Source: Eledone cirrhosa
Taxonomy: Eukaryota
Direction: 5' to 3'
DNA length: 64,000 nucleotides
Assembly: GCA_964016885.1 (NCBI GenBank)
Contig: OZ024743.1
Coordinates: 351,602,001-351,666,000 of the forward strand
Shown here piece after piece: positions 26,580 through 57,610 of this stretch. A program made the translations under genes and the position numbers. The notes beneath the pieces are model-generated. The model made no database searches. It was not told the DNA's origin and saw nothing but the letters and a program-made list of their open reading frames with translations. Each line of letters begins with the position of its first letter. The stretch's first letter is position 1.

Positions 26580-29500
26580 CAGCAGCCTATGTTATCACTT
26601 AAGTTTAGACCTGGTTGCCTTTCGATATGATGGATGGACTACGGAATTCTGGAGAGTCTGAAAAAATCTGGACACTCAGTGACAATGCCAAAGATAAAGA
26701 CAAATTCACCTTATGCTGCCGGACGAGAATGCAAGAACTCCTCCTCTTTATTTAGGCCGTGGACGGCTAACATAGCCCCATCTCCCTCACCCCTCCCTGC
26801 GCCCTGTCCTTCCCACCCACCAAACGCAATCCAAAACTTCAGAGTTAGTACCATGAATGTAGGTACCTTAAAAGGTCGCTCTAATGAGGTTGTAGAGATG
26901 CTTGAACGTAAGGAGGTTGATGTTTTCTGTATTCAAGAGACCAGGTGGAGGGGTGGGTCTGCTAGATTCATTGTGGGTAAAAAACGATGCTATAAGCTTT
27001 TCTGGGTGGGAAATGACAATGGGCTGGGTGGAGTAGGAATCATGCTAGCAGAAAAATGGGTAGATAAAATAATAGATGTAAATAGAGTGAACGACAGAAT
27101 AATTAAAATAAGACTTGTCCTCAATAGAACTACTGTGACAATAATATCTGCGTATGCACCCCAACCCGGACTGCCTGGCATTATAAAAGACAGATTCTAT
27201 GAGTCGTTAATGCTCATTACCTCCCAAATAACCGACAGTGACTATATAATTATTGCTGGCAACCTAAATGGTCATGTTGGACAACACTGTGACGGCTATG
27301 ACGGAATCCATAGAAACTATGGCTTTGGTACTAGAAATGAGGAAGGCTCCAGAATCCTGGAATTCTGTGACGCAAATAATCTAACTATCTGTAACACAAA
27401 CTTCAAAAAACAAGATAATCACTTGATCACCTATAGATCAGGGGAACACGCCAATCAGATAGATTATATCCTTACCAGAAGACAAGACAGTGTCTGTTGT
27501 AAACACTAAATCCCTCCCCCATGAAGAATACACCTCCCAACATAGCCTCATAGTTAGCGACCTCATAGTCATGACGAGAAGTATTCGACAACAGAGGAGG
27601 ACTATCCTTAGGAGAAAAATATGGAAGTTAAAGGACCCCACAGCCAGTAATAAATTTAAATGCATATTACTTGATGCTTTTGACAGTAAGGAAGAGCAAT
27701 TAGAGTCGTACAGTGGGAATTCCTGAAAGCTAACCTGCTGAAGGCGACAGATGAAATCTGTGGCTGGAGCAGACCTGTAGGCAGGAGGAGAGTAACTTGG
27801 TGGTGGAACAGTAAGGTGGAGGAGTCGATCAAGGCTAAAAAGCAGGTTTGGAAAGTATGGCGGGATGGGGGATGTAGAGAAGACTATCAAGTGGCCAGGA
27901 GGGAAGCTAGGCGACAAGTGTACTTCGCAAGAAGGGAAGCAGAGGAAAGAAAGTTCAAGCCTGTTCTACAATGCGAGGACCAAAAACGTGAGGTGTTCAG
28001 GATTGCTAGACAATGTGTCAAGGAGAACCATGATATTGTCGGGGAGAAGGATGTCCGTAATGATGATGGTGTACTTGCCATGACTGACGCTGATAAGAAG
28101 GTAGCTTGGAAGTGTCACTACGAAAGGCTACTAAATGAGGAGAATAAATGGGAGAAAGACAGTCTCCCCCACATCGATCCAATAGAAGGACCAGCAGTGC
28201 AAGTTTCAGGTAGTATAATAAGTAAAGCAATCAAAGATATGAAGACGGGCAAGGCGGCTGGGCCTTCGGAAATAGTTGCTGAAATGCTGAAAGCATCTGG
28301 AATGGTGGGACACACTATGGTCATCCGGATAGTAAACCAAGTTATACAGAATGGGGTCGTACCAAAGGACTGGCATAGCAGCATCATCATTAACTGCTAC
28401 AAGGGTAAAGGAGATGCCCTAGATAGAGGAAACTATAGAGGCATTAAATTAATTGACCAGGTCAAGAAGGTCAAAGAAAAAGTAATAGCGCAACTAATCA
28501 GAGAGCGAATTGATCTCGATGAAATGCAGTTCGGGTTTGTGTCAGGTAAAAGTACGACAGACACACTTTTCATTGTACGACAGCTACAGGAGAAGTACCT
28601 AGCTAAAAGTAAACCCCTCTACTTAGCTTTTGTAGACCTGGAGAAAGCCTTTGACAGAGTCCCTCGCTCCATTATCTGGTGGGCTCTTAGAAAACTAGGT
28701 GTAGATGAATGGCTTGTGAGAGCTATACAAGCCATGTATAAAGAAACAGTCGGCAAGGTTAGAATTAACAACGAATATAGTGAAGAGTTTAGCGTAAAAG
28801 TTGGTGTTCATCAGGGCTCAGTCCTTAGCCTCCTCCTATTTATTATCACCCTCCAAGCTATAACAAAGGAGTTCAAGACCGGCTGCCCATGGGAACTTCT
28901 ATACGCAGATGATCTAACGCTCATAGCCGAATCAATGGCTGAACTAGAGAAGAAATTCCAAACATGGAAGCATGGCCTAGAATCAAAAGGCCTTAAAATT
29001 AACTTGTCTAAGACTGAAGTCCTAATATGGAGGAATGAGAATAGGGCACTGGCCATGCTCAGTGTGTAGGAAAGGGGTAGGCAGAAACTCCATTTTATGT
29101 CCCAAATGCAAAATATGGGTGCATAAAAGATGTAGTGGGATCACAGGTAAGCTAACTAAGAATATAGATTTTACATGTGGCCGATCCTCTGGTGCAATAA
29201 GTAGCAGCAAATGCCCACAGAATACTAGCTCATTCCATTGCCCAGATGGTTCTATAGAAATAGTGGACACTTTCCGTTACCTGGGTGACAAAATCAGCAG
29301 GGGTGGAGGGTGCTCCGAAAGTACTGTAGCTAGAGTCCGAGGGGATGGAAAAAGTTCAGAGAGCTTAAACCACTATTGGCTGCTAAAGGTTTCTCTCTAA
29401 AAATAAAAGGCAGGCTGTATGATGCCTGCATACGAACAGCAATGTTACATGGCAGTGAGACATGGGCCTTGTGTGCAGAGGATATACGCAGACTAGAGAG

Positions 29501-30137
29501 GAACGAAGCTTGCATGCTCCATTGGATGTGTAATAGTAATATACACGAACGGCAAAGCATAAATGAACTAAGTGAGAAATTAGGAATAAGAGGGATCAGA
29601 TGCTGTTTACTCGAGAGAAGACTACGTTGGTATGGACACGTGATGCGCATGAAAGACGACAGCTGTATAAAAAAGTGCAGGGCGATCAAAATAGATAGTA
29701 GCTACGGAGTAGGCAGACCCAGAAAAACCTGGGACGACTTGATAAAATCCGACCTCACACACTTACGCCTCTCCAAGACAATGTCACTGGACCGAAATCA
29801 TTGGCGTTACACAGTAATAGAGAAGACCCGCCTTACCTGAGTACAAAGCGAAACCTACAGTCAGTAGGCACCTCTTAACCAAAGTACACCCCCGTCCCAC
29901 TACCCCTACCCCACCGCCATCTACACCACCCCTTTCGATGTAAAGCTATGTTGGTACCACAACATCCAGTCCTAAATAAATGAGGTCTTGTAGGTGTCAC
30001 GACAAAAAAACACACAGTCCACGCTGTAATATGGCCGTGTAGGTAACACAGTAAAAACCTCCCAGTCCACACTGTAAACGTGGTTGGTGTTAGGAAGGGC
30101 ATCCAGCCGTAGAAAACGACTGGATGATGATGATGAT
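26580..30137 (+). mobile_element. RTE-clade LINE, near full length, frameshifted, in the last ORC4 intron (antisense)
   Basis: APE endonuclease (TMNVGTL, IQETRW, SAYAPQ, QIDYIL). RT (FVDLEKAFD, GVHQGS, LYADD). Cys-rich insert. C-terminal RLRWYGHV..GRPRKTW. (GAT)n tail. Confidence 0.93.
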
Positions 30138-33970: not shown

Positions 33971-34005
33971 CACACATACATACACACACATATATATATA
34001 TATAT
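33770..34005. repeat. (TA)n/(CA)n microsatellite cluster
   Basis: Direct observation. Confidence 0.9.
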
Positions 34006-34011
34006 AGGAAC

Positions 34012-34215
34012 GAGTAGGACCCCGACAGCTGAGCTCAAGCCGTTTCGACAGCTAATTCTGGACTAAATGAAAATTTTTATCCTGTTAAATGAATAGCTGA
34101 ACTTCTCAGGGGGTAATTCCATATATGGTAAAAGTGATTGTCACAAGGATTGGTCAAAAGTTTGTTGTTGAGACACATGATTCTATCATGGCATTTTGTG
34201 GAAGGTAGGGCCATA
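34012..34215 (-). mobile_element. Solo pLTR fragment of PLE family A with degenerate hammerhead
   Basis: Homologous to 53010-53220, abuts (TA)n, core reads CTGAGAA...GAAA...GTC. Confidence 0.7.
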
Positions 34216-35736
34216 TATCTTATGAGATCACAGTATTTTGTATATATAGTTTTCAACTAGCAATAACCACGCTTCTGATAACCCTCATTGGCTATGGTCC
34301 CGCCTATATCAAGGAAGAATAAGTACTCTAGATGAAAAAAGTTCTTATCCCTTATAGCACTATTTCATTTATGAAACATGCAGTTTGTTTACAACAACAT
34401 GAGAAAAGACAACGATTGACTGCACTAAATGGAAAAGAGCATTATAGAAAGGAGTAAGAGTTGCAGAATCTAACTGGTCAAAACAACAAAAACCAAAGAG
34501 TAAGATCTGCCATATTAGCACTACCAACTGTATTCTGTAATAATTGCAGGAGTGATTGTGCCAGAGTGCTTTTGGTCCATTGTCTCATGAAAGAGCAAAG
34601 TAATATTGACGGAGTTTCTTCATTGTTTAACTACAAAAATTTGATAAAGAAAATTAAATATCAAGCCATACTCGATTGTGAGTATATCATCATCCCCATT
34701 TAGCGTCCACTTTTCCATGCTTGCATGGGCTAGACGGGTCACCCATGCCAAAAGGCAAGTCTGGCCAGAGTTGGCCATGCTGCACTTTGCTCCGGCTGTA
34801 AATTTGGCCAAGTATTTTACAGCTGGATGCCTTTCCTAACATCAAGCAGATTTACAGTATAGAATTGGATGGCTCTGTTATGAGGGACAGGCCAGTTAGC
34901 TGTGCCGAACCTGTCTCACAGCAGAACCATAGTTTTGGAGCCCAACCCATCTTGCAGTGGAACCATAGTTATGGAGCCCGGTACTGGATGACACTTGCCC
35001 AAGGTGCCACACTGTTGGACTGAACCCAAAACTGTATGGTTCTGATGCAAATTTCTTAACCACATGGGCAGATTCAGCATGACAAAGTACATGACAAGGC
35101 AGGCTATTTGAATGCCCAGTCTATTTGATAAGCTTCTAAATAGTTTCCTTCTACACAATTTCACTCACAGACTTGGGTTGACCCGAGGCTATGGTAAAAC
35201 ACACGTGCACAAGATACTATACAATGGAATCAACTCCACAACTGCATGAATGTGAAAAGAATTTCTTAACCATTTGGTCATACCTACATCAGCCAGTGAG
35301 AAATAAAAAGGTTCATACAAACAGGGCCAAAAAACTAAGAAGGCTCTACAGCAACCATGCAACACCCATTTTCAGAAAAATCTTTGCTTGCTTCGTGCCC
35401 CAAAGGGGTCTTGTACCACCTTGCAAAATTTCTCTTGGAGGCCCTGCATACAAACAATTGTGAAGGCACGCTACCAAGTGATTAGGTTGTTGGGCTCATG
35501 ATCATAATATTATGAGTTCAATTCCTGGATCGAGTAGCACATTATTTTCATGAACAATTACTAGCAAGACACTTCATTTCAAGTTGTTTTTAATGATAGG
35601 ACTGGATCATCTATTATTAAAACAATCAAGCAGCATCCTATAAGATACAATCTCAGAGAAGGCCAGCTAAACCTGCATAGGTGAGGGCTATAAATTTCAT
35701 TTTTTTTTTTTAATACAAACATTATTAGAGACTTAC

Positions 35737-39924: not shown

Positions 39925-41396
39925 AAAGCCAAGGTTAGAATTAACAATGAATATAGTGAAGAGTTTAGCGTAAAAGCTGGTGTTCATCAGGGCTCTGTTC
40001 TTAGCCCCCTACTATTTATTATTGCCCTTCAGGCTATAACGGTGGAGTTCAAGACCGGCTGCCCATGGGAACTCCTATACACAGATGATCTAACGCTCAT
40101 AGCTGAATCAATGGCCGAGCTAGAGAAGAAATTCCAAACATGGAAGCACGGCCTAGAATCAAAAGGCCTTAAAATTAACCTGGCTAAGACTAAAGTTCTA
40201 GTTTGTAGGAAAGAAAATAAGGCGCCGGTCCCTTCCGGGAAATGGCCATGCTCAGTATGTAGGAAAGGCGTAGGTAGAAACTCCATTTTATGTCCCAAAT
40301 GCAAAGTGTGGGTGCATAAAAGATGTAGTGGGATCACAGGTAAGCTAACTAAGAACATAGATTTTACATGTGGCCGGTGCTCTGGTGCAATAAGTAGCAG
40401 CAAGTGCCCACAGAATACTAGCTCTTTCAATTGCGCAGAGGGTTCTATAGAAATAGTGGACAGCTTCCGTTACCTGGGTGACAAAATCAGCAGTGTGGGG
40501 AGGGTGCTCTGAAAGTACAGTAGCTAGAGTCAGAACTGGATGGAAAAAGTTCAGAGAGCTTATACCACTATTAGCCGCTAAAGGGTTCTCCCTAAAAATG
40601 AAAGGCAGGTTGTATGATGCCTGCATACGAACAGCAATGTTGCATGGCAGTGAGACCTGGGCATTGTGTGCAGAGGATATACGCAGACTAGAGAGGAACG
40701 AAGCTTGCATGCTCCGCTGGATGTGTAATAGTAATATACGTGAACGACAAAGCATAAACGAACTAAGGGAAAAATGAGAAATAAGAGGGATCAGATGTTG
40801 TTTACTCGAGAGAAGGCTACGTTGGTATGGTCACGTGATGCGCATGAAAGACGACAGCTGTATAAAAAAGTGCAGGGCAATAAAGATAGACGGTAGCCAC
40901 GGAGTAGGCAGACCCAGAAAAACCTGGGACGACCTGATAAATTCCGACCTCACACACTTACACCTCTCCAAGACAATGTCACTTGACCGAGATCTTTGGC
41001 GGTACTCAGTAATAGAGAAGACCCGGCTTGCCTAAATACAAAGTAAACCTACTACAGTCAGTAGGCATCTCTAACAAAATACGCCCCCACCCCATCCACA
41101 CCGCCCCTTTCAATGTAAAGTTACGTTGGTGCCACAACATCCAGGCCGAAATAAATGAGATTGTGTAGGTGTCACGACAAAAAAACACACAGTCCACGCT
41201 GTAATGTGGCTGTGTAGGCAACACGGTAAAAACCTCCCAGTCCCACACTGTAAATGTGGTTGGTGTTAGGAAGGGCATCCAGCTGTAGAAAACCCACCAG
41301 ACAGTCCTATGCGAGCAAGACAAAGACAACCACTCTTGCTTCAAGTGGGAAAACTCCCGTCCAAACCCATGCAAGCATGGAAGATGGACGTTAAAC

Positions 41397-41432: not shown

Positions 41433-42177
41433 AGCCAAAACAATGCAGGTATGGACATAGAATAAAGAATGCAAATGCAAAAGATATTGTTGACAATTAG
41501 TCTTTTACCTTAGATTTATTTAAATGTCCTTAATTTTCGAGATAATATCTCTTCTTCAGAGCGAAGTAAAGTTGTCAACCAGTGTTCTAAATTGCTTGCC
41601 AAGTCATGCTGACAGGAAATGGTATAGTGTATCTGTTCTATCTCTAATATCAAAGAGTTAAGATTAGGTGGATAAAGAGTAGTCTCCCTTTAAAAGGGGT
41701 TTGTTTTTTTTTGTTTTTTTTATATACATGCCTGTTTAAGTGTGTGGGAGAATGCATGAAGGTGTAAGTATGTGAGTGTGTGTGTGTGAGTGTGAGAAGA
41801 TATGTCTATTCGTAAATGTGGGGGATAGGTGTTATTTCGTGTTAGAACTGGTTTTGTGTGTGTATGTGTGAGAGAGAATAAGTGGAGGTGTAAGCGTGTG
41901 TGTGTGTGCGTGCGTGTGGTGTGTGGGGTGTGTGTAAATATGGGGCTAGAAGGTCTATCAAGTTATAAATTGGGTGTTGAGTTCTAGTCTATTATTGATT
42001 GGTGGTTGTGTTTTGTCTATAATTAGTGCTTCCTTAATTCTAAGATTGCCGAGGTTTCTTTCCATGGTTTCTATACTAACTGTTATGTTTTGTCTGTGTT
42101 TTTGCATTTAACTAGGTGTTTCTTAAATGAGGAAGCGTTAGTATTGAGGTGTTCTTTTATTCTTATGTGGAGTGGTC
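41432..42177 (-). mobile_element. 3' fragment of PLE family B
   Basis: Reverse complement of ~56890-57610 (RPLHIRIKEHLNT...NLRIKEALII plus pLTR). Confidence 0.8.
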
Positions 42178-42277
42178 TCACTGATGAGGGACTCATTTTA
42201 TAACATGTTATCCATGTGCAACCATGCAGTATTCTTCTCCCCATATTTTTAACATATATTTACCTAAACTGCGATTC

Positions 42278-42308
<31 letters not shown>

Positions 42309-42778
42309 TACTGCTCCCTCGTTCTCTGTTTCTCTTACTTTCTTTCATCCCCTCTGTCATGTCAGTTAACACTTTCTCTCTACTGACCTCTTCCTCGCAC
42401 TTCCACTCACTCACTCACTGTTTCTCCCCTTCTCAATTCCCCCCATTCGCTACGAAAACGATTTCCTTCTTTCTTACATCGGATTCATCGCGAAAGGTCT
42501 ATTTCTTACTCGCTCATATATTCACCCAGCTTATACATGTAGCTTGTGTTTCTTCCTATCTTCGGTTAGCTTTCCCCTGTTTGTTTACTTGTCTCACTTG
42601 CTTTACGCGTTTTAATTGTCCTAATAACTTATTTTAGTTATTATTGCACCAACGTGAGGTATATGATTTTTAATGCAATGAAATACCAATGACCGTTGGC
42701 AAATCACTGATGAGGGACTCATTTTATAACATGTTATCCATGTGCAACCATGCAGTATTCTTCTCCCCATATTTTTAA
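42178..42778 (+). repeat. 526-bp non-coding unit bounded by a 75-bp direct repeat starting at a CTGATGA box
   Basis: 42178-42252 equals 42704-42778. Followed by (TA)n. Confidence 0.75.
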
Positions 42779-42804
42779 TATATATATATATATATATATG
42801 TATT

Positions 42805-42840
<36 letters not shown>

Positions 42841-43414
42841 GTATATATAATGTATTTTGCAATACACTTTATGCTTAATTAAAAGCATTTTGAAGACCGT
42901 AAGCTATTGTTTTAAAGTACTGACAAATTCACTTACTTTGATCTCAACAAACAGGGGAGATAAGCCGACAAGTCTTGTTTCGCTTTGGTTGAAGCTTATC
43001 AAGGCCAACTACCCCTCCTGTCTACCGAGATCATTGATGTTATATTCTTATAGAAATCTAGTAAATAATCAGGAGCTGATTATGCAGAGCGGTTGTTGGT
43101 CAGGCAGAAATTAAAAATTAGAATTGGAGCTCTGAAATAGCAATATATATATGGATGTATATATAATGTATTTTGCAATACACTTTATGCTTAATTAAAA
43201 GCATTTTGAAGACCGTAAGCTATTGTTTTAAAGTAGTGACAAATTCACTTACTTTGATCTCAGCAAACAGGGGAGATAAGCCGACAAGTCTTGTTTCGCT
43301 TTGGTTGAAGCTTATCAATGCCAACTACCCCTCCTGTCTACCGAGATCATTGATGTTATATTCTTACATATAGATGTTATATTCTAACAATAGCTTACGG
43401 TCTTCAAAATGCTT
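42841..43414 (-). repeat. 316-bp tandem repeat (~1.7 units) plus a 29-bp inverted piece, each unit with a hammerhead (retrozyme-like)
   Basis: Period 316 (42841/43157). 43386-43414 is the reverse complement of aagcattttgaagaccgtaagctattgtt. Confidence 0.88.
42964..43005 (-). ncRNA. Type I hammerhead ribozyme, U3-A8 core variant (second copy ~43280-43321)
   Basis: Minus strand: GCC-TTGATAA-GCTT caacca AAGC-GAAA-CAAG a CTTG-TC-GGC. Confidence 0.8.
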
Positions 43415-45571
43415 GTGTATGACGAAAAAGAAGACGATTTAGAGACGTATGACATAAATAACTGGAATTTCTTACATGATAACTTACTGCAGGCTACTGA
43501 TGAAACTTGTGGCTGGAGCAGAGCTCGAACCAGACAGAGAGTGACCTGGTGGTGGAACAGAACAGTAGATAGGGCCATTAGAGACAAAAGACTAGCATGG
43601 AAGGCTTGAGAAAAGGGGGGGGGGGGAGTAGTGAAGGATATACAGCTGCTAAGAGAGAAGCTGAGAGTAGGAGGTTTGCCAATGTTCTGCGACGGGAAGA
43701 TCAGAGACGTGCAGTGTTCCACATTGCAAGGCAGTGTGTCAATGCAAATCAGGATGTTGGAGATGTGTCCGGGATGATGCCGGTGTACTTAGTGTCACAA
43801 ATGATCAAAAAAAGGAGGCCTGGAAATGTCATTATGAGAGACTGATGAATGTGGAGAACGAATGGGACAGAGAGGAATTACCCCCAGTAGACCCGACAGG
43901 GACCAGCTATTGAGATTGACGAATATAGGGTACAAGAGGCAATTAAGGGAATGAAGAATGGTAAGGCTGCTGGACCGTCGGGGATAGTTGCTGAGATGCT
44001 GAAGGCATCATAAGTTGCACGCATCATTAATCAAGCTATATATGGTGGTGTCATACCCAAAGACTGGTGCAGCAGTATTCTCATAAATTGCTACAAAGGT
44101 AAAGGGGATGCTCTAGAGAGGAGCAATTATAGGGGCATAAAGCTGATGGATCAGGTTATGAAAGAGGCAGAGAGAATATTAGCGCAACTGATTAGAGAAA
44201 GGATCAAATTAGATGAGATGCAGTTTGGTTTTGTGCCTCGGAAAAGTACAACAGATGCCCTCTTCTCAGTGAGGCAACTACAAGAGAGGTTCTTAGAGAA
44301 GAATAAGCCACTAAACTTAGCTTTTGTTGACCTAGAGAAGGCCTTTGATAGGGTACCCTGATCTGTCATCTGGTGGTCCCTAAGGAAACTAGGTGTAGAG
44401 GAATGGCTTGTGAGGACAGTGCAAGCTATGTACAGGGGTGCTGTCAGTAAAGTGAGAATAGGAATGGAGTTTAGTGAGGAATTCCAGATACAAGTAGGTG
44501 TACATCAGGGTTCGGTCCTCAGCCCGCTCTTGTTCATTATAGTCCTCCAAGCCATAACAGACGAGTTTAAGACTGAATGCCCATGGGAACTTCTCTATGC
44601 TGATGATCTGGTTCTTATAGCAGAATCAGTAGAGGAGCTAGAGAATAAATTCTGGCTATGGAAACAGCAGTTGGAATAAAGAGGCCTGAGAGTGTTGATA
44701 AGTAGAAGAGAGGACAATACTGATTCCATCAAGGAAATGGCCATGTTCAATATGTAGGAAAGGAACTGGCATAAATTCCATAAAATGTACGCAATGCAGA
44801 TCTTGAGTACACAAGAGATGTAGTGGGATAGCAGGCAAACTAACAGGTAGGGAGAAATACGTATGCAGTAGATGTACAGGGAAATTAGACAGTAGAAGTC
44901 GCATTGATAGACACATTTTTCAAATGCAGATGGGTGCTATAGAAGTGGTTGATAGCTTCCGGTACCTAGGTGATCAGATTAGCATGGGAGGGGGGTGTTC
45001 CGAGGCCATAGTATCTAGAATAAGGACGGGTTGGAAGAAGTTTAAAGAGTTACTTCCTCTGCTGACAAAGAAGGGTTTCTCCCTGCGTACGAAAGGCCAG
45101 TTATATAATGCCTGTGTGAGGAGCGCGATGCTGCATGGTAGTGAGACATGAGCAGCAACTGCAGAGGATATGCGACGGCTGGAGAGGAATGAGGCAAACA
45201 TGCTCCGTTGGATGTGCAATGTCAATGTGCGCGAACGACCAAGCATAGACGAGTTGAGAAAGAAACTGGGTATAAGAGGGATAAGTTGTGGTGTGCAGGA
45301 GAGAAGGCTGAGATGGTATGGACATGTGATGCGCATGGAGGATGACCGCTGGGTAAAGAAGTGCCAAGAAATCCCAGTAACAGGAAGACGCGGTAGATGT
45401 AGACCACGAAAAACATGAGCGGAGGTGGTAAGAGCAGACCTCAGATCGCTGAAACTCACCGAGGAGATGATGAAGGACCGTGACAAGTGGAGAGATGCTG
45501 TGCTGAATAGGACCCATCCCACCCTTGCAAGCAGGGAAAAGCGGACGTAAAATGATGATGATGATGATGAT
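43415..45571 (+). mobile_element. 5'-truncated RTE LINE, second subfamily, degenerate
   Basis: TWWWN, FVDLEKAFDRVP, GVHQGS, LYADD, RLRWYGHV, (GAT)n tail. Many stops. Confidence 0.9.
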
Positions 45572-47600: not shown

Positions 47601-49260
47601 CAATAAGATGACTTAATAATAGTGAAGGTGCTGACAGCTGCAGCAGTAGTAGTAGTAAACAAGTAATTAAGTACTATATATAGTTGTATGTAAGAAATAT
47701 GTGACAAAAGACTAATGGTAAAATGGCTTATATTCGAGGTCAATATTTTGTTGATTTTCACCAACTTCAAAATTCTACGTAAATGAGGTGGGTGCTAATG
47801 GAGGTGAATATTACACTGGTTTCACTTTCATTATGAAATTTGTATTTACTGTGGTCTTTTTATACATTCTGAATGAATATGATCTTCAAAATAGTCAAAA
47901 ATTTGTAAAAATATCATTATATCATCATCATCATCGTTTAACGTCCATCTTCCACGCTAGCATGGGTTGGACGGTTTTGTTCTACTTGAGGCGGGATTGG
48001 TTAGGAGACCGTGTCTCGCTCGTACAGAACTGTCCCTGGCAGGTTTTCTATGGCTGGATGCCCTTCCTAACACCAACCACATTTACAGTGTGGACTGGGA
48101 TCCTTTTTACTGTATCACCAACACGACCATTTTACAGTTGATGGAAATGGGAGGATGGAGTAAGGTGTGTTGGGTGGGGTGTATATTGGGTTAAGAGGTG
48201 CCTACTAACTGTAGGTTTAAGTTTGTATGCAAGGGAAGGCGGGTCTTCTGTACAACTACATAGCGCCAAAGATCTCAATCCAGTGTCATTGTCTTAGAGA
48301 GGTGTAAGTGAGCAAGGTCAGTTTTTATCACCACGTCCCAGGTTTTTCTTGGTCTACCCATGTAATGTAGTTGTGAAACAAAAACTATACTCTAAACCAA
48401 AGGTTCTCAACCCATTTCAGCCATTTTGCCCCTCGAAATCACGAAACGACCCCTACCCTATTTTTCCATTTTTCAATATACTACTGATTTTGATATCAGT
48501 AGATTACAGGGCCAAATCAAGTTATGTAAAAATCTTTAAAAAATATTAGTACAAATTAAATACAAAAAAGTTTCAAAAAGCAAGCTATTTCAAATTATAT
48601 TTTTTTTTTTAAATAGACGTGAATGTTCTCAAAGATTTGATCTCAGTCGAAAAAGCTTTTTTTTTAAATTCTATATTTCACTGTTAGCTGTTGTAATATT
48701 TTGAGTGGATAGACAATTCTACAATTCAAACTGTAAAGTCAAAATACAAAAGATGCAAAATATGAAGAATTTCTTACCTTTCTTTTGAATCTCAAACACA
48801 AGGGAAAAATAGTAACTTGCAAAATAAAGTGCCTCAATCACAAACTTAGTTGCAACGAATGAATTGAGATGTGACAGTGAGCAAACAATATCTGTATCCC
48901 TTATATTTATATATATATATATTTTTTTTTTTTACGTCCACTTTTCCCTGCTTGCAAGGGTGGGAGGGGAACTGATTCTGGCTTGATTTCTACAGCTGGA
49001 TGCCCTTCCTAACACCAACCTCATTTACAGTGAGTGCTGGGTGCTTTTTTGCCGTGGCACCTCCACGACCACTTTGCAGTGGAATGATAGGGACCCCAGT
49101 CCCTATCATCTCATTTCTACAGCTGAGTAAACTGGAGCAATGTGAAATAAAGTGTCTTGCTCAAGGAAACAACACATCACCCGGTCTGAGAATTGAACTC
49201 ACAACCTTTTGATTGCAAGGCCAATGCTCTAACCACTAAGCCATGTATATATATATATAT

Positions 49261-52200
49261 ATTGGAATAAATGCTCTGAAATAGCGATATATATGTGAAT
49301 ATAGACATAGAATATTCGAAAATATTCTGTATGTTTATAATAAACATTTTGAAGACCTAATCGCTATAGAATAGAATACGTCACGTATTACAATTAGATT
49401 CTCGATAAAAGCAAGGGAAGTAATCTACGCGTTTCATTCTCGTTAGAAATCATCAGGACTACATATCCAGTGCTTTTATCGAGAATGACACAGCTAGAGA
49501 CTTATAGAATACTTAGCTGTGTACAGGAACTGGTTTGAAAGAGCGGTTGCCGGTCCGGCAGAAATTAGAAATTGGAATAAATGCTCTGAAATAGCGATAT
49601 ATATGTGAATATAGACATAGAATATTCGAAAATATTCTGTATGTTTATAATAAACATTTTGAAGACCTAATCGCTATAGAATAGAATACGTCACGTATTA
49701 CAATTAGATTCTCGATAAAAGCAAGGGAAGTAATCTACGCGTTTCATTCTCGTTAGAAATCATCAGGACTACATATCCAGTGCTTTTATCGAGAATGACA
49801 CAGCTAGAGACTTATAGAATACTTAGCTGTGTACAGGAACTGGTTTGAAAGAGCGGTTGCCGGTCCGGCAGAAATTAGAAATTGGAATAAATGCTCTGAA
49901 ATAGCGATATATATGTGAATATAGACATAGAATATTCGAAAATATTCTGTATGTTTATAATAAACATTTTGAAGACCTAATCGCTATAGAATAGAATACG
50001 TCACGTATTACAATTAGATTCTCGATAAAAGCAAGGGAAGTAATCTACGCGTTTCATTCTCGTTAGAAATCATCAGGACTACATATCCAGTGCTTTTATC
50101 GAGAATGACACAGCTAGAGACTTATAGAATACTTAGCTGTGTACAGGAACTGGTTTGAAAGAGCGGTTGCCGGTCCGGCAGAAATTAGAAATTGGAATAA
50201 ATGCTCTGAAATAGCGATATATATGTGAATATAGACATAGAATATTCGAAAATATTCTGTATGTTTATAATAAACATTTTGAAGACCTAATCGCTATAGA
50301 ATAGAATACGTCACGTATTACAATTAGATTCTCGATAAAAGCAAGGGAAGTAATCTACGCGTTTCATTCTCGTTAGAAATCATCAGGACTACATATCCAG
50401 TGCTTTTATCGAGAATGACACAGCTAGAGACTTATAGAATACTTAGCTGTGTACAGGAACTGGTTTGAAAGAGCGGTTGCCGGACCGGCAACCGCTCTTT
50501 CAAACCAGTTCCTGTACACAGCTAAGTATTCTATAAGTCTCTAGCTGTGTCATTCTCGATAAAAGCACTGGATATGTAGTCCTGATGATTTCTAACGAGA
50601 ATGAAACGCGTAGATTACTTCCCTTGCTTTTATCGAGAATCTAATTGTAATACGTGACGTATTCTATTCTATAGCGATTAGGTCTTCAAAATGTTTATTA
50701 TAAACATACAGAATATTTTCGAATATTCTGTCTATATTCACATATATATCGCTATTTCAGAGCATTTATTCCAATTTCTAATTTCTGCCGGACCGGCAAC
50801 CGCTCTTTCAAACCAGTTCCTGTACACAGCTAAGTATTCTATAAGTCTCTAGCTGTGTCATTCTCGATAAAAGCACTGGATATGTAGTCCTGATGATTTC
50901 TAACGAGAATGAAACGCGTAGATTACTTCCCTTGCTTTTATCGAGAATCTAATTGTAATACGTGACGTATTCTATTCTATAGCGATTAGGTCTTCAAAAT
51001 GTTTATTATAAACATACAGAATATTTTCGAATATTCTATGTCTATATTCACATATATATCGCTATTTCAGAGCATTTATTCCAATTTCTAATTTCTGCCG
51101 GACCGGCAACCGCTCTTTCAAACCAGTTCCTGTACACAGCTAAGTATTCTATAAGTCTCTAGCTGTGTCATTCTCGATAAAAGCACTGGATATGTAGTCC
51201 TGATGATTTCTAACGAGAATGAAACGCGTAGATTACTTCCCTTGCTTTTATCGAGAATCTAATTGTAATACGTGACGTATTCTATTCTATAGCGATTAGG
51301 TCTTCAAAATGTTTATTATAAACATACAGAATATTTTCGAATATTCTATGTCTATATTCACATATATATCGCTATTTCAGAGCATTTATTCCAATTTCTA
51401 ATTTCTGCCGGACCGGCAACCGCTCTTTCAAACCAGTTCCTGTACACAGCTAAGTATTCTATAAGTCTCTAGCTGTGTCATTCTCGATAAAAGCACTGGA
51501 TATGTAGTCCTGATGATTTCTAACGAGAATGAAACGCGTAGATTACTTCCCTTGCTTTTATCGAGAATCTAATTGTAATACGTGACGTATTCTATTCTAT
51601 AGCGATTAGGTCTTCAAAATGTTTATTATAAACATACAGAATATTTTCGAATATTCTATGTCTATATTCACATATATATCGCTATTTCAGAGCATTTATT
51701 CCAATTTCTAATTTCTGCCGGACCGGCAACCGCTCTTTCAAACCAGTTCCTGTACACAGCTAAGTATTCTATAAGTCTCTAGCTGTGTCATTCTCGATAA
51801 AAGCACTGGATATGTAGTCCTGATGATTTCTAACGAGAATGAAACGCGTAGATTACTTCCCTTGCTTTTATCGAGAATCTAATTGTAATACGTGACGTAT
51901 TCTATTCTATAGCGATTAGGTCTTCAAAATGTTTATTATAAACATACAGAATATTTTCGAATATTCTATGTCTATATTCACATATATATCGCTATTTCAG
52001 AGCATTTATTCCAATTTCTAATTTCTGCCGGACCGGCAACCGCTCTTTCAAACCAGTTCCTGTACACAGCTAAGTATTCTATAAGTCTCTAGCTGTGTCA
52101 TTCTCGATAAAAGCACTGGATATGTAGTCCTGATGATTTCTAACGAGAATGAAACGCGTAGATTACTTCCCTTGCTTTTATCGAGAATCTAATTGTAATA

Positions 52201-52910
52201 CGTGACGTATTCTATTCTATAGCGATTAGGTCTTCAAAATGTTTATTATAAACATACAGAATATTTTCGAATATTCTATGTCTATATTCACATATATATC
52301 GCTATTTCAGAGCATTTATTCCAATTTCTAATTTCTGCCGGACCGGCAACCGCTCTTTCAAACCAGTTCCTGTACACAGCTAAGTATTCTATAAGTCTCT
52401 AGCTGTGTCATTCTCGATAAAAGCACTGGATATGTAGTCCTGATGATTTCTAACGAGAATGAAACGCGTAGATTACTTCCCTTGCTTTTATCGAGAATCT
52501 AATTGTAATACGTGACGTATTCTATTCTATAGCGATTAGGTCTTCAAAATGTTTATTATAAACATACAGAATATTTTCGAATATTCTATGTCTATATTCA
52601 CATATATATCGCTATTTCAGAGCATTTATTCCAATTTCTAATTTCTGCCGGACCGGCAACCGCTCTTTCAAACCAGTTCCTGTACACAGCTAAGTATTCT
52701 ATAAGTCTCTAGCTGTGTCATTCTCGATAAAAGCACTGGATATGTAGTCCTGATGATTTCTAACGAGAATGAAACGCGTAGATTACTTCCCTTGCTTTTA
52801 TCGAGAATCTAATTGTAATACGTGACGTATTCTATTCTATAGCGATTAGGTCTTCAAAATGTTTATTATAAACATACAGAATATTTTCGAATATTCTATG
52901 TCTATATTCA
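49261..52910. repeat. 310-bp tandem array, ~3.9 units in one orientation plus ~7.8 units inverted, centre at 50484
   Basis: Unit starts at 49261, 49571, 49881 and 50191. The inverted arm recurs at 50792, 51102 ... 52652. The only variant seen is a 2-bp deletion near 50729. Flanked by (TA)n on both sides. Confidence 0.97.
50576..50618 (+). ncRNA. Minimal type I hammerhead ribozyme (1 of 12 identical copies: 8 on +, 4 on -)
   Basis: GTAGTC-CTGATGA-T TTCT aacg AGAA T-GAAA-CGCG-TA-GATTAC: intact core, 6-bp stem I, palindromic stem III ACGCGT. Predicted cleavage after GUA (50612). Confidence 0.88.
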
Positions 52911-53009
52911 TATATATATATGTATATGTATATATAAGAAATTGTGGTAAGGAACCAGATGGACCATAACGCACCAAAGTACTCAATACTTAGGGTAGTA
53001 GAGTGGGAA

Positions 53010-54689
53010 ATAGGAAAAAGTATGACCCCGACGGCAGAGCTCTAGCCGTTTTGACGGCTATTTCTGGACTAAATAAGAATTTTTAGCCTGGTGAATAAAT
53101 AGCCGAACTTGTCAAGGGGGTACTTCCTTATATGGGAAGATTGTAGTTGTCAAAAGGATTGGTTGAAATTTGTTGTAAACACAAATAAGTCTATCATGGC
53201 ATTTGGTGGGAGGTAGGGGTGGCTGAACTTGCCTGTAGGGGAGTGAGTGGAGCGGTCAAGCGTTGAAAGTGAATTGTACCGGGATGATGGGCTCCTCACC
53301 CTCAAAGGGTACAACCCCAGTAGTACAGACCGGGTCTGTAAACAACTAATCAACTTCTTCCGGGACTGGGGATTTAAAATCACCCTACAAACGTCCCTAA
53401 CCCGACTCAATTTCCTGGACGTTACCCTTAACCTCGAAAATGATCTGTACTACCCATACAGGAAACCAAACGACAACCTTCGCTACATCCACCGCCGCCC
53501 TAACCATCCTAGAAACATCACCAATAACCTGGTTAAAAACATCTCCCTCCGCATATCTCATTTGTCCGCTAATGAGCAGATATTTGACGAACACGCGCCT
53601 CATTACAACCAGGCCCTCAAACAGAGTGGCTTCCAGGAAGAAATATCCTTTTATCCAGCTTCACTTAGCGGAACCAGCAGGCGACACCGCCACTCACGCA
53701 ACATATCGTGGTTCAATCCCCCCATAATGCCGAGGTGGCAACACCTATCGGGAAAATCTTCTTTAGACTCCTCGAAAAACACTTCCCACTACAACACCGC
53801 TACCACAACATAATCAACAAAAACACCATCAAACTCTCCTACAGCACCACACCTAACTTCGCACAAAACATCGTCTCCTCAAACAACAAAAAACTCAACC
53901 CCTATGGAAGAAATAACCTAGACATCAGTGGAGAGCCGACCAGGAGGTGTAACTGCCCTGATAGATCTACGTGCCCCCTCAACAACAAATGCCAAAAACG
54001 TAACATGATCTACCAGTGCAACATGAGGACGGACACCTCCAACAAAGCTTATATAGGATTAACCGCGTGTGACTTCAAGACCCGGCTCTACCAACACAGA
54101 CATACTTTCCGAAACCTGGTCCGGCGACATGCCACTACACTTTCGGGCCACATCTGGGATCTCCAAGATAATAATATAACCTACAATCTCACTTGGAGCT
54201 TACTGTCCAGAGCTAATTCTTACACGGGAGGACGCCGTCCGTGTAACTTATGCTCGGAGGAAACATTACAAATGCTGTTTTCAAAGGACCAACTCCTAAA
54301 CAAGACGAACTGGTAACCGCATGCAAACACAGATTGCGTAGGACTTACCTCTCCCTCAAACCCCATAACGAGCCGGGTGGGTAGACAAGGGCTATCCTTA
54401 GAATCTGCTGTATACATTTCACTTTCAACGCTTAACCACTCCACTCACTCCCCTATTGTTCTACAGGCAAGTTCAGCCACCCCTACCTCCCACAAAATGC
54501 TATGATAGACTTATTTCTGTTTACAACAAATTTCAACCAATCCTCTTGACAACTACAATCTTCCCATATAAGGAAGTACCCCCTTGACAAGTTCGGCTAT
54601 TTATTCACAAGGCTAAAAATTCTAATTTAGTCCAGAAATAGCTGTCGAAACGGCTAGAGCTCTGCCATCGGGGTCATACTTTTTCCTAT
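53010..54689 (+). mobile_element. Penelope-like element family A, 5'-truncated, with inverted pLTRs
   Basis: RT LYRDD, FLDVTL, YRKP (53247-53813). GIY-YIG IYQC...YIGLT..FKTRLYQH (53708-54316). ~265-bp inverted repeats at 53010-53273 and 54418-54689. Confidence 0.92.
54576..54679 (+). ncRNA. pLTR hammerhead, U3-A8 variant with extended stem II (mirror copy ~53020-53123 on -)
   Basis: CCCC-TTGACAA-G tt CGGCTATTT..AAATAGCTG t C-GAAA-CGGC..GCCA-TC-GGGG. The mirror copy has perfect CGGC/GCCG and GTC but AAAA in place of GAAA. Confidence 0.65.
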
Positions 54690-54899: not shown

Positions 54900-57610
54900 C
54901 TAACTACGCAATGCTTTAAGTAAACTACAATTTCCTCCTTTCCTTACGCCTGAGCCAGGCCCAGTTTACAACTGTAAAGAAACTCTTCCAGCTATCTAAA
55001 AGGAACACCAAAGCCGGCTGCCAAATAAACTTCCTCAAATGGTGCCTGAATAACATCATCATCCCAAAAACTATCAAAAACCTGTACCTACCAACATGCT
55101 GCAAATCACCAGGCCTCAAACGATCACTTAGCTACATACAAAAATTCTGCCTAAGAAAACTTATACAACACCTACACCTCATGCTACAACAACACATACG
55201 GACAATTTCCAGCCTAGTACCACAACTCACTGAAACCCCAGAACCTCTGCTCAGAGTAATTTCCGCCGCTATAGACAGGTCCTACCACCATCGCCGAGAT
55301 TACGAGAAAATATGCCTAAAGTAAAAATTTCTCAAACTCAGCACGGCTGACCGTCCTAACAATAACCCAACTCTAAGTACCAACAGAGGCAAACAAGACG
55401 GTACCAACATCGAACCTAGCGGCACCCCGACCAACAACACACCTGATGCAAAACACTTCGTCACAGACTTGACAGGATCCCTCTCCCGAGATGAACTAGA
55501 CCTCCTCAGCCTGGGTCCCAAGTTCATATCGAAACAGAGACTGGACGACAAATTATGGCTCGACATAGAAACGAATTTCTGTCGGGCCGCCTACCAACTA
55601 AAATGGATATCGACCCTCGGCAACAACACCACGGAATCTAACACAACCAGATTCCCAATATACCAACTGGACCACCCACTCTGTCCACCGCCTGCAAACC
55701 GCGAGCTGGAAGAAAAACTCTTGAAGCTAAAACATTCCGTATTTAACATCTTACGGAAACAGAAGAAGATAGCCCCAAACCTCTCCAGGATGCAACAACT
55801 CACCCTGAAGAACCTGTGGAATAGGGAACTCATATACTTACCATCCGACAAAGGTAAAGAGTTTTGTGTCATCTCTCAAGCCACATACAACAACCTAGCC
55901 TTTGAACACTTAAGCGACAACGAACTGTATACAGAGGTCCCGGACATAACTGCAGCCCAGATCGAAAAACAGGCCAACTCCATCTGGTCCGACATCTGCA
56001 GTAGAAGACAACTCCCAAATAAATTTAAGTTCATTTACACCACTAGAAATAGCAGACTGCCTACTTTCTATCACCTCATGAAGACTCACAAGAATAGTAC
56101 TAAGACACAAGTAAGACCCATCGTCTAGCATAGAAGGGCCCCTATACAAAATCTCCTGGCTCCTCTCCCAGGTCCTCAAGCCTCTACTCTCCACCTTTCC
56201 CGGGCATGTCAGTAGCTCCGACGAGGTCATACATAGACTACACCAACTCCAGCCAGAACAACTTAAATTAAATAGATACGCCTTTCGCCTTGACGTTGTC
56301 TCCCTCTACACTACAGTCCCCGCTCATCCAGCTGTCGATTTATTGACGGAATGCGTGGTCGCAGAAGACGTCCACTGCTACGGCCTCCATCCAACGGACA
56401 TACACCAGCTTTTGCCCTTCAGAGTGGACAACACGTACTTCACCTTCCACCACCACACATACAGACAGACAATGGGATCCAGCCAATCGGGCCTGCTGGC
56501 CATCACTTATATGAACCAGCTGGAATGCCGAGCCTTCAACACCTGCCATTCCTATATCTTCTTCACCCAATATGTAGATGATATACTCATCCTTACATCA
56601 TCCCGTGAAGAAGCAGATAAAATATACATGACATTCTCCAGCATGGACGCCAATATTAAGTTCAGCATGGAACACCCCGATGACCGCGGATCCCTATCCC
56701 TATTGGACTTCCAACTCAGAGTAACAGAGGAAGGCGACATCCACACCTGCTTCTATAAAAAAAGCCGCCAGCAGGGACCTGTTCGTACATTTCAGATCAG
56801 CCTTCCCAGACCTATGCCACCAGGCTTTACGTCGTATACAGATTAGAATGCGACAAATGCAGCAATTTCTACATAGGTAGCACCACCAGACTACTTCACA
56901 TTAGAATAAAAGAACACCTCAACACTAACACGCTTCTTCATTTAAGAAACACCTAGTGAAATGCAAAAACACCGACAAAAACATAATAGTTAGGATAGAA
57001 GCTAAGAAAAGAAACCTCGGCAATCTTAGAATTAAAGAAGCACTTATTATAGACAAAACACAACCACCAATCAATAACAGACTAGAATTTAACACCCAAT
57101 TTTTATCAAGATAGAGCACCTAGCCCCACACTTACACCTCCACGTACCATCTCACACACACACACACGCACACTTACACCTTCACTTATTCTCACTCACA
57201 CACACACATACACACACATAGACCAGTTTTAACATGATAGAGCATCTAGCCCCCATATTTATATATAAACATGTCCTCTCATACTGACACACACACACAC
57301 ACCTTCACGTATTCTCCCACACACACTTAGACATACATGTCCAAACCCTTTTAAAGGGAGACAACCCTTTATCCACCTGACCTTCACTCTTTGACATAAG
57401 AAATAGAATGGAATTTCTATACTATTTCCTGTCAGCATGACTTGGCTAATTAGAACAGTGGATTAACCCCTTTACTTCCCTCCGAAGAAGAGATATTATC
57501 TTGAAAATTAAGGATATTCAAATAAATTTAAGGTAAAAGACTAATTGTCAGCAATATCTTTTGCATTTGTATTTATATTCTATATCCATACCTGCATTGT
57601 TCTGGCCTTC
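54900..57610 (+). mobile_element. Penelope-like element family B, near full length, degenerate
   Basis: LLSLGPKF, PSDKG, FYHLMKTHK..VRPIV, LDVVSLYT, QYVDD, LSLLDF. GIY-YIG VVYRLECDKC..FYIGST..HIRIKEH at ~56830-56920. 3' pLTR. Confidence 0.88.

Follow-up and report, generated by a model that had tools for sequence, protein, structure and literature searches.

The closest described systems are the metazoan non-LTR retrozymes, the Penelope-like elements (PLEs) and the hammerhead ribozymes with a U3-A8 core. In the available parts of PMC7229834 and 10.64898/2026.07.22.740005, non-LTR retrozymes are AT-rich, non-coding tandem units of 150-450 bp with one type I hammerhead each. PLEs were called a strong candidate for mobilising animal retrozymes in 2020 (PMC7229834), and the preprint, in the part available, argues from co-occurrence and trees and leaves the mechanism to be elucidated (10.64898/2026.07.22.740005). 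According to the accessible text of PMC8557442, PLEs show partial tandems, an inverted 5′-truncated copy, a 30-40 bp tail that is often at one end only, and (TA)n targets, and non-autonomous head-to-tail forms are noted. A PLE protein cuts and extends both strands in vitro from two internal start sites, the spacing of which corresponds to the tail, and hammerhead cleavage is not needed for this insertion (PMC11167929, available part). Natural hammerhead cores with U3-A8 at positions 3 and 8 were reported in 2011 (PMC3088659). In 2014, U3-A8 cores were described in Schistosoma PLEs, and a U3-A8 descriptor was already used in searching (PMC4209133); in their available parts, both papers report U3-A8 hammerheads as natural and active in vitro. 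The U3-A8 variant itself is already known and is not new.

We analyzed a 64,000-nt stretch of DNA (the window), which contains two related hammerhead repeats. The parts of the locus under study and its sibling array are as follows.

42841..43156, minus strand: full 316-bp unit (family A), its 3′ end being the 'short' terminus
42778-42849: (TA)n tract, adjoined by the short 3′ terminus of this first unit
43112..43156, minus strand: tail region of the first unit, bearing both recurrent termini (unit positions ~4-14 and 40-45)
43157-43366, minus strand: second family A unit, 5′-truncated (unit positions 107-316)
43367-43385: junction scar, repeating part of the first arm
43386..43414, plus strand: inverted second arm of 29 bp (unit positions 246-274), cut short
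49256..52919: sibling family B array, 310-bp unit with a C3-G8 core, head-to-head

The first-pass annotation had described 42841..43414 as a tandem repeat with the architecture of the 310-bp unit. The repeat lies on the minus strand where it had been placed, and an end-to-end global alignment of the 316-bp and 310-bp units scores 158, far above 200 shuffles (-41 ± 13, maximum 2). The unit is repeated, but there is no long array, only 1.7 units plus an inverted scrap. The second copy shows 4 differences from the first in its first 212 positions. Non-LTR retrozymes are defined by at least two consecutive hammerhead units of 150-450 bp, and two hammerheads are present at this locus; another locus (L218) has at least 13 units. 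The surrounding sequence (window 42001-44000) has a GC content of 38%. Unlike PLEs, the family A element apparently has no ORF; it consists of 316-bp units only, end to end, with no reverse transcriptase and GIY-YIG frame, and a single unit is too short for a retroelement ORF. The family is multi-copy and spread over many contigs of the searched assembly (3.0 Gb, 1,796 contigs).

The hammerhead of the first unit was resolved into the parts below, together with the core of the second copy.

42939..43033, minus strand: whole ribozyme domain
42996..43002, minus strand: 5′ strand of the hammerhead core, TTGATAA, U3-A8 variant (U3 = 43002, A8 = 42997)
42982..42995, minus strand: helix II GCTT/AAGC, 4 bp, with a 6-nt loop bearing a terminal A
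42967..42981, minus strand: GAAA, self-complementary helix III and GUC triplet (C17 = 42967)
43006-43003 with 42966-42963, minus strand: proximal helix I, followed by an internal loop
43033-43017 with 42955-42939, minus strand: distal helix, 17 bp
43312..43318, minus strand: U3-A8 core of the second copy, the basal pair of helix I being mismatched at 43319

Three helices stand round the core and helix I is open-ended, as in the type I layout. The conserved core comprises a Watson-Crick 3-8 pair in the U3-A8 form, GAAA, and GUC as the NUH triplet, and cleavage is predicted 3′ of C17 (42967). The TTGATAA core, helix II and the GUC site that had been proposed from the letters were all located on the minus strand in copy 1. 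The proposed distal helix TGATCTC/GAGATCA is present in its position, although it is 17 bp and not 7 bp long. The reading of stem III as CAAG-A-CTTG fails, as a loop of one base is not possible; helix III is either 4 bp capped by a 3-base loop, in the monomer, or a self-complementary duplex, in the dimer.

Folding of the ribozyme region beat 200 of 200 shuffles (z -5.1). For this copy, the monomer is predicted to be most stable as a rod, by 6.5 kcal/mol over the hammerhead fold. Comparing 15 natural copies of five families, we found that the hammerhead was in no case the lowest-energy monomer fold (15/15, gap 1.2-9.7 kcal/mol), and that helix III was self-complementary in every copy. Metazoan dimer-type hammerheads have a self-complementary helix III (PMC4209133, available part), and the two features together would fit the dimer model of metazoan type I hammerheads. 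The monomer folds predict little monomer activity. Loop II carries its terminal A in 15/15 copies, with a U at 1.7 in 12 of them and at 1.8 in the other 3, a sequence pattern that would fit the activating tertiary contact between loop II and stem I described in the accessible text of PMC11875169. We also observed that the 5′ strand of helix III (families A, C, D and E) complements the beginning of the core, which gives the rod-like alternative fold, and that in most copies of family A this strand and position 3 changed together. The rod-like fold is possibly an off-state.

Searching Rfam, we obtained Hammerhead_HH9 (RF02275) as the best match of both copies, full length, with E 0.003-0.004; its scores of 23.3 and 22.8 bits did not reach the gathering score of 52. 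At gathering scores, Rfam found no hammerhead in the entire window, the canonical C3-G8 310-bp arrays included, so the miss is not due to U3-A8. Apart from the score (23 bits vs 52), the motif differs from Hammerhead_HH9 in its 4-bp proximal helix I and its U3-A8 pair.

The annotation had taken TTGATAA as the state of a family. An exact 26-mer carrying TTGATAA has 694 matches genome-wide, which is a lower bound on family A copies because the match is exact, while the C3-G8 form of the same 26-mer has 0 exact matches genome-wide. One-mismatch neighbours of the C3-G8 form gave 2 matches, one C3-A8 and one U3-G8, and a looser pattern for C3-G8 with the family A helix II gave 2 matches, both unrelated. 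Family A thus stands at 694 U3-A8, 0 C3-G8 and 2 mixed cores, and U3-A8 is fixed in it, as had been supposed. We then left positions 3 and 8 free in a wider pattern that excludes family A and most of family C. It had 1,718 matches, and the first 100 listed, counted by eye, contained 75 U3-A8, 24 C3-G8, 1 U3-G8 and 0 C3-A8 cores. Runs X1-X3 show the families, with no variant listed at core positions 3 or 8; they come from one sample, possibly the source of the assembly, and are not independent. Runs X4-X6, with a depth of ~2-6 over most of the stretch, were left out as evidence.

The family of the 316-bp unit is one of at least five related repeat families that make up a clan, the 310-bp family (B) included. 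For a box that the two units have in common we counted 18,060 matches, and 90 of the first 100 listed are of the 310-bp type. Tracing the odd loci among the matches, we found families C (C3-G8, helix II ACGC/GCGT), D (U3-A8, helix II GTAC/GTAC) and E (C3-G8, helix II ATAC/GTAT), with within-family identities of 0.93 for C, the sample of which is biased, 0.90 for D and 0.92 for E. Median identities to family A are 83% for D, 77% for C, 76% for E and 66% for B. The view of the 316-bp and 310-bp repeats as siblings in a diversified group is borne out by these five families and by the A-B identity.

We extracted 232 units and built a tree from 50 of them after removing the core and helices II-III. 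It splits C3-G8 units (B, C and E) from U3-A8 units (D and A) with a bootstrap of 99, and so the 3-8 switch happened once on this tree. The U3-A8 side also holds one unit first labelled E, and two mixed-core units nest within C and D. The direction is likely from C3-G8 to U3-A8, judging from family B as the most distant one, although the branch of B is long.

The same 15 copies, hand-picked from the five families and related to each other, were used to count covariation on a structure drawn from one of them. Pairing was kept in 98.2% of 387 cells against 38-44% in slid controls. Double changes occurred in 18/26 pairs, across all four helices and the 3-8 pair, and 0/500 shuffles were as high; further pair types showed no excess (29 vs 31.9 in shuffles). 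As the rows are related and the structure comes from one row, these counts lend support and are not a significance test. They agree with the earlier proposal that structure is kept while sequence turns over. The U3-A8 change had been called compensatory. Both partners did change together, but this was a single event on the tree and is alone one data point. Selection on the ribozyme had been deduced from structure being kept while sequence turned over; the 3-8 change was overstated as evidence for it, and it is the covarying helices that carry the argument for selection.

Variation within family A was also checked. Among the variants common to at least 3 of 46 loci, 15/17 lie inside the 96-nt ribozyme domain (233 positions examined), and none of the 17 falls on the 12 core positions in these 46 loci. 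Helix III shows one recurrent double change, present in 6 locus records. Outside the ribozyme, unit positions 62-122 and 224-294 hold 1/17 of the common variants, and their boxes are kept across the five families, which suggests that they may be recognized sequence-specifically.

In our view, more is to be learnt from the insertion footprint, and from how the families succeed one another, than from U3-A8. We collected the 51 sites behind the first 100 of the 694 exact matches (contig C1) and left out one that extended beyond its stretch, so that 50 loci remained; two of these, L036 and L038, are a local duplicate and not independent. In 34/50 loci, two arms lie head-to-head with their 3′ ends outward, 16/50 have one arm, and 0 are tail-to-tail. 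The two 3′ ends follow a strict rule. In 30/34 two-armed loci one end lies at unit position ~4-14 and the other at 40-51, which is ~30 nt longer; the remaining 4/34 have one atypical end each, and like-ended pairs number 0/34. Among the long ends (n = 38), 21 are at unit position 40 and 9 at 45. A (TA)n tract adjoins 66/79 typical 3′ ends, compared with 1/16 free 5′ ends. Family B behaves likewise, with one long and one short end in 13/13 two-armed loci (17 fetched), and the array of the window has its long end at 49256 and its short end at 52919, both within (TA)n. The insertions thus carry the marks of a non-autonomous PLE: (TA)n as the target, a second copy that is inverted and truncated at its 5′ end, and a tail of 30-40 bp on one side only. 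Target-site duplications, which in non-LTR retrozymes exceed 4 bp when present, are masked by (TA)n; a candidate of 11 bp is present at the family B locus L108 (1456-1466, 4271-4282), the array of which sits outside a pure (TA)n tract.

The arms also inform on the template. At the arm level (n = 84; here L053 is scored as two-armed and L199 as one-armed, unlike in the 50-locus count), 47 arms are longer than one unit and 19 are longer than two, and the 5′ ends are scattered. Just one arm in 84 has its 5′ end no more than 5 nt from the predicted cut, vs 2.9 expected by chance. Since the 5′ ends are not enriched at the cut site, a linear monomer released by cleavage is not what is usually copied. 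Copying is likely from a circle or from an uncut multimer, which the data cannot tell apart. The two arms of one locus differ at 3.4 positions on average, units within an arm at 4.0, and different loci at 8.1.

Several PLE-like sequences lie in the window, and the family of the first one below served as an internal control for the insertion footprint.

52937-54689: decayed Penelope-like element beside the 310-bp array, core 54584-54590 on the plus strand, inverted arm 53010-53238
33993-34150, minus strand: another copy of that Penelope-like family
41468-42252 and 54900-57573: two related decayed PLE-like elements, with reverse transcriptase and GIY-YIG-like pieces read by eye

The PLE-like family next to the 310-bp array is protein-coding. 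By eye, a YRDD motif and GIY-YIG-like spacing can be made out in the 710-aa frame of one copy. A protein atlas links a minority of the cluster members to reverse transcriptase and GIY-YIG families, as leads, and none of the PLE-like ORFs was named by sequence searches of Pfam and PDB. This family also has one long and one short end in 6/6 inverted pairs (20 loci, 4 read whole). Its tail is ~75 nt, at one end only, and not 30, so it is probably not the partner of the 316-bp unit. Its hammerhead-like motif has a U3-A8 core, a long helix II, a palindromic helix III loop and GUC, and a pattern for this motif with position 7 free has 5,155 matches. The first 100 listed comprise 89 U3-A8 and 11 apparently C3-A8 cores, with 0 having G8. 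As this family is largely U3-A8, the variant is common in this genome. A mismatched core thus seems able to spread in a PLE, which counts against the 3-8 pair as indispensable for mobility, and an intact pair may not be needed for every insertion. Looking for end sequence common with an autonomous PLE, we found no recurring non-unit continuation of the tail among 100 listed of 310 matches. No autonomous partner was present among the fetched loci, where matches to PLE proteins close to clan units seemed to belong to adjacent insertions. A minimal hammerhead-like motif was also seen at ~41530-41560 on the minus strand, in the decayed stretch 41468-42252.

We consider it probable that the 316-bp unit is a non-LTR retrozyme, likely copied in trans by PLE proteins, and that U3-A8 likely keeps its ribozyme working. 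The insertion footprint is read at the loci themselves; we infer an enzyme, a cleavage and a circle that would act as follows. The tandem array would be transcribed, and neighbouring hammerheads would pair through a swapped, self-complementary helix III and release monomers that may re-ligate to circles. A PLE reverse transcriptase/GIY-YIG protein would cut both strands of a (TA)n site, and each DNA end would prime at one of the two internal start sites ~30 nt apart. Synthesis would continue through several units, round the circle or along an uncut multimer, and the two cDNAs would be joined at their variable far ends. New subfamilies would come only from masters with an intact fold, and this, we propose, would explain the compensatory turnover. 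A stricter version is offered tentatively, at somewhat worse than even chances. It holds that every two-armed insertion uses both start sites, one per strand, on a re-ligated circle read several times, that the ribozyme is selected as the circle-maker, and that master families succeed each other, with an active core that changed from C3-G8 to U3-A8 a single time and then drove two later bursts.

The same footprint could be left by a non-autonomous derivative of a PLE that retains the hammerhead fold for its structure, to bind protein or stabilise the RNA, with cleavage weak or dispensable and uncut multimers as templates, without a circle. We regard this as unlikely, though it has several facts in its favour. 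The 5′ ends are not at the cut site, the monomer rod is more stable than the hammerhead, and C3-A8 cores recur in the PLE-like family (11 of the first 100 listed). Moreover, insertion proceeds in vitro without cleavage (PMC11167929, available part), and PLE hammerheads are weakly active in vitro according to the accessible text of PMC4209133. A purely structural role sits less well with the absence of a common variant at the 12 core positions of family A, with the joint change of both 3-8 partners that was then kept through two later families, and with the mixed cores of the clan being singletons.

Satellite DNA that is amplified locally by unequal crossover or by DNA-level rolling circles, with the hammerhead as a passenger, would account for the tandem units and for the closer likeness of units within a locus than between loci (4.0 vs 8.1), and such a route is discussed in the available part of 10.64898/2026.07.22.740005. 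It is nevertheless very improbable here, as the loci are short and dispersed over many contigs, the 3′ ends are fixed at two unit positions while 5′ ends are scattered, the arms are head-to-head in (TA)n, and variants are common to both arms of a locus (mean 3.4 differences). The Rfam score below the gathering threshold might suggest that TTGATAA is a decayed C3-G8 family or a chance look-alike, but we give this almost no credence: family D is also U3-A8, the helices covary, and decay from a CTGATGA consensus is refuted by the 694 vs 0 counts. The retrozyme copied in trans by PLE proteins is the reading that we prefer.

How does the clan compare with the described systems? Like the metazoan non-LTR retrozymes of PMC7229834 and 10.64898/2026.07.22.740005 (available parts), it has AT-rich, non-coding tandem units of this size with one type I hammerhead each, a weak or palindromic helix III and co-occurring PLEs, and the U-U at the helix II base in some subfamilies resembles axolotl HHR_Amex2. 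It departs from the published retrozymes, so far as those parts describe them, in the U3-A8 core of one clade, and circular RNA and cleavage have been shown for those. Neither the main text of PMC7229834 nor the available text of the preprint describes arms set head-to-head with a long end and a short end. In main texts on inverted or tailed hammerhead repeats we found no description of this footprint on retrozymes (supplements may list such arrangements), and main texts on octopus and cephalopod hammerheads, mostly outside subscription journals, did not describe this clan.

The core covariation is the same as in the U3-A8 hammerheads of PMC3088659 and of the Schistosoma Cercyon PLE (~1,300 matches, PMC4209133). 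In the available text of these papers, those are mostly single minimal motifs of heterogeneous sequence; family A differs in its 4-bp helix II, long helix I, tandem repetition and C3-G8 sister families in the same genome. With PLEs (PMC8557442, MRC1/Chlamys included, and PMC11167929, available parts) the clan has in common the partial tandems, the inverted 5′-truncated copy, the one-end tail of 30-40 bp, the AT-rich or (TA)n targets and a hammerhead upstream of two start sites.

The earlier argument for PLE mobilisation was co-occurrence and trees, while here the retrozyme insertions themselves bear the PLE footprint. The strict one-long/one-short rule is testable in the existing in vitro PLE system, and within the clan, natural sister ribozymes with C3-G8 and with U3-A8 can be assayed next to each other. 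A search that looks for CUGANGA only would overlook family A (at least 694 copies), family D and the PLE-like family with its 5,155 matches.

We also considered whether the unit is an intron. This idea was rejected, as no precisely spliced copy was found and the single match was a head-to-head junction. A donor-like GTRAGT just after the distal helix and an acceptor-like TTTCAG inside the tail were observed (window 42931-42936 and 43132-43137, minus strand). The donor-like box is present in families A, C, D and some E, family A varying only between GTAAGT and GTGAGT, and the donor/acceptor-like pair is weak in B.

Some other repeats were noticed on the way. Another hammerhead repeat (L142:293-1200) has a 467-bp period, a C3-G8 core, a 4-bp helix II with a TAACAA loop and a palindromic helix III, and is inserted in (TA)n; L165:2385-2690 holds a diverged relative. 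In the window, a 75-bp duplicate (42178-42252 and 42704-42778) has CTGATGA without GAAA, and its right copy is the immediate left neighbour of the (TA)n tract with the family A locus. A U4 snRNA-like copy at 34142-34316 on the minus strand (48.9 bits, just over the Rfam gathering score) overlaps the end of a PLE-like piece and is probably a retrocopy. A decayed LINE-like reverse transcriptase sequence (43415-44800, plus strand) starts where the inverted family A arm stops, and related copies are at 28326-29642 and 39930-40837.
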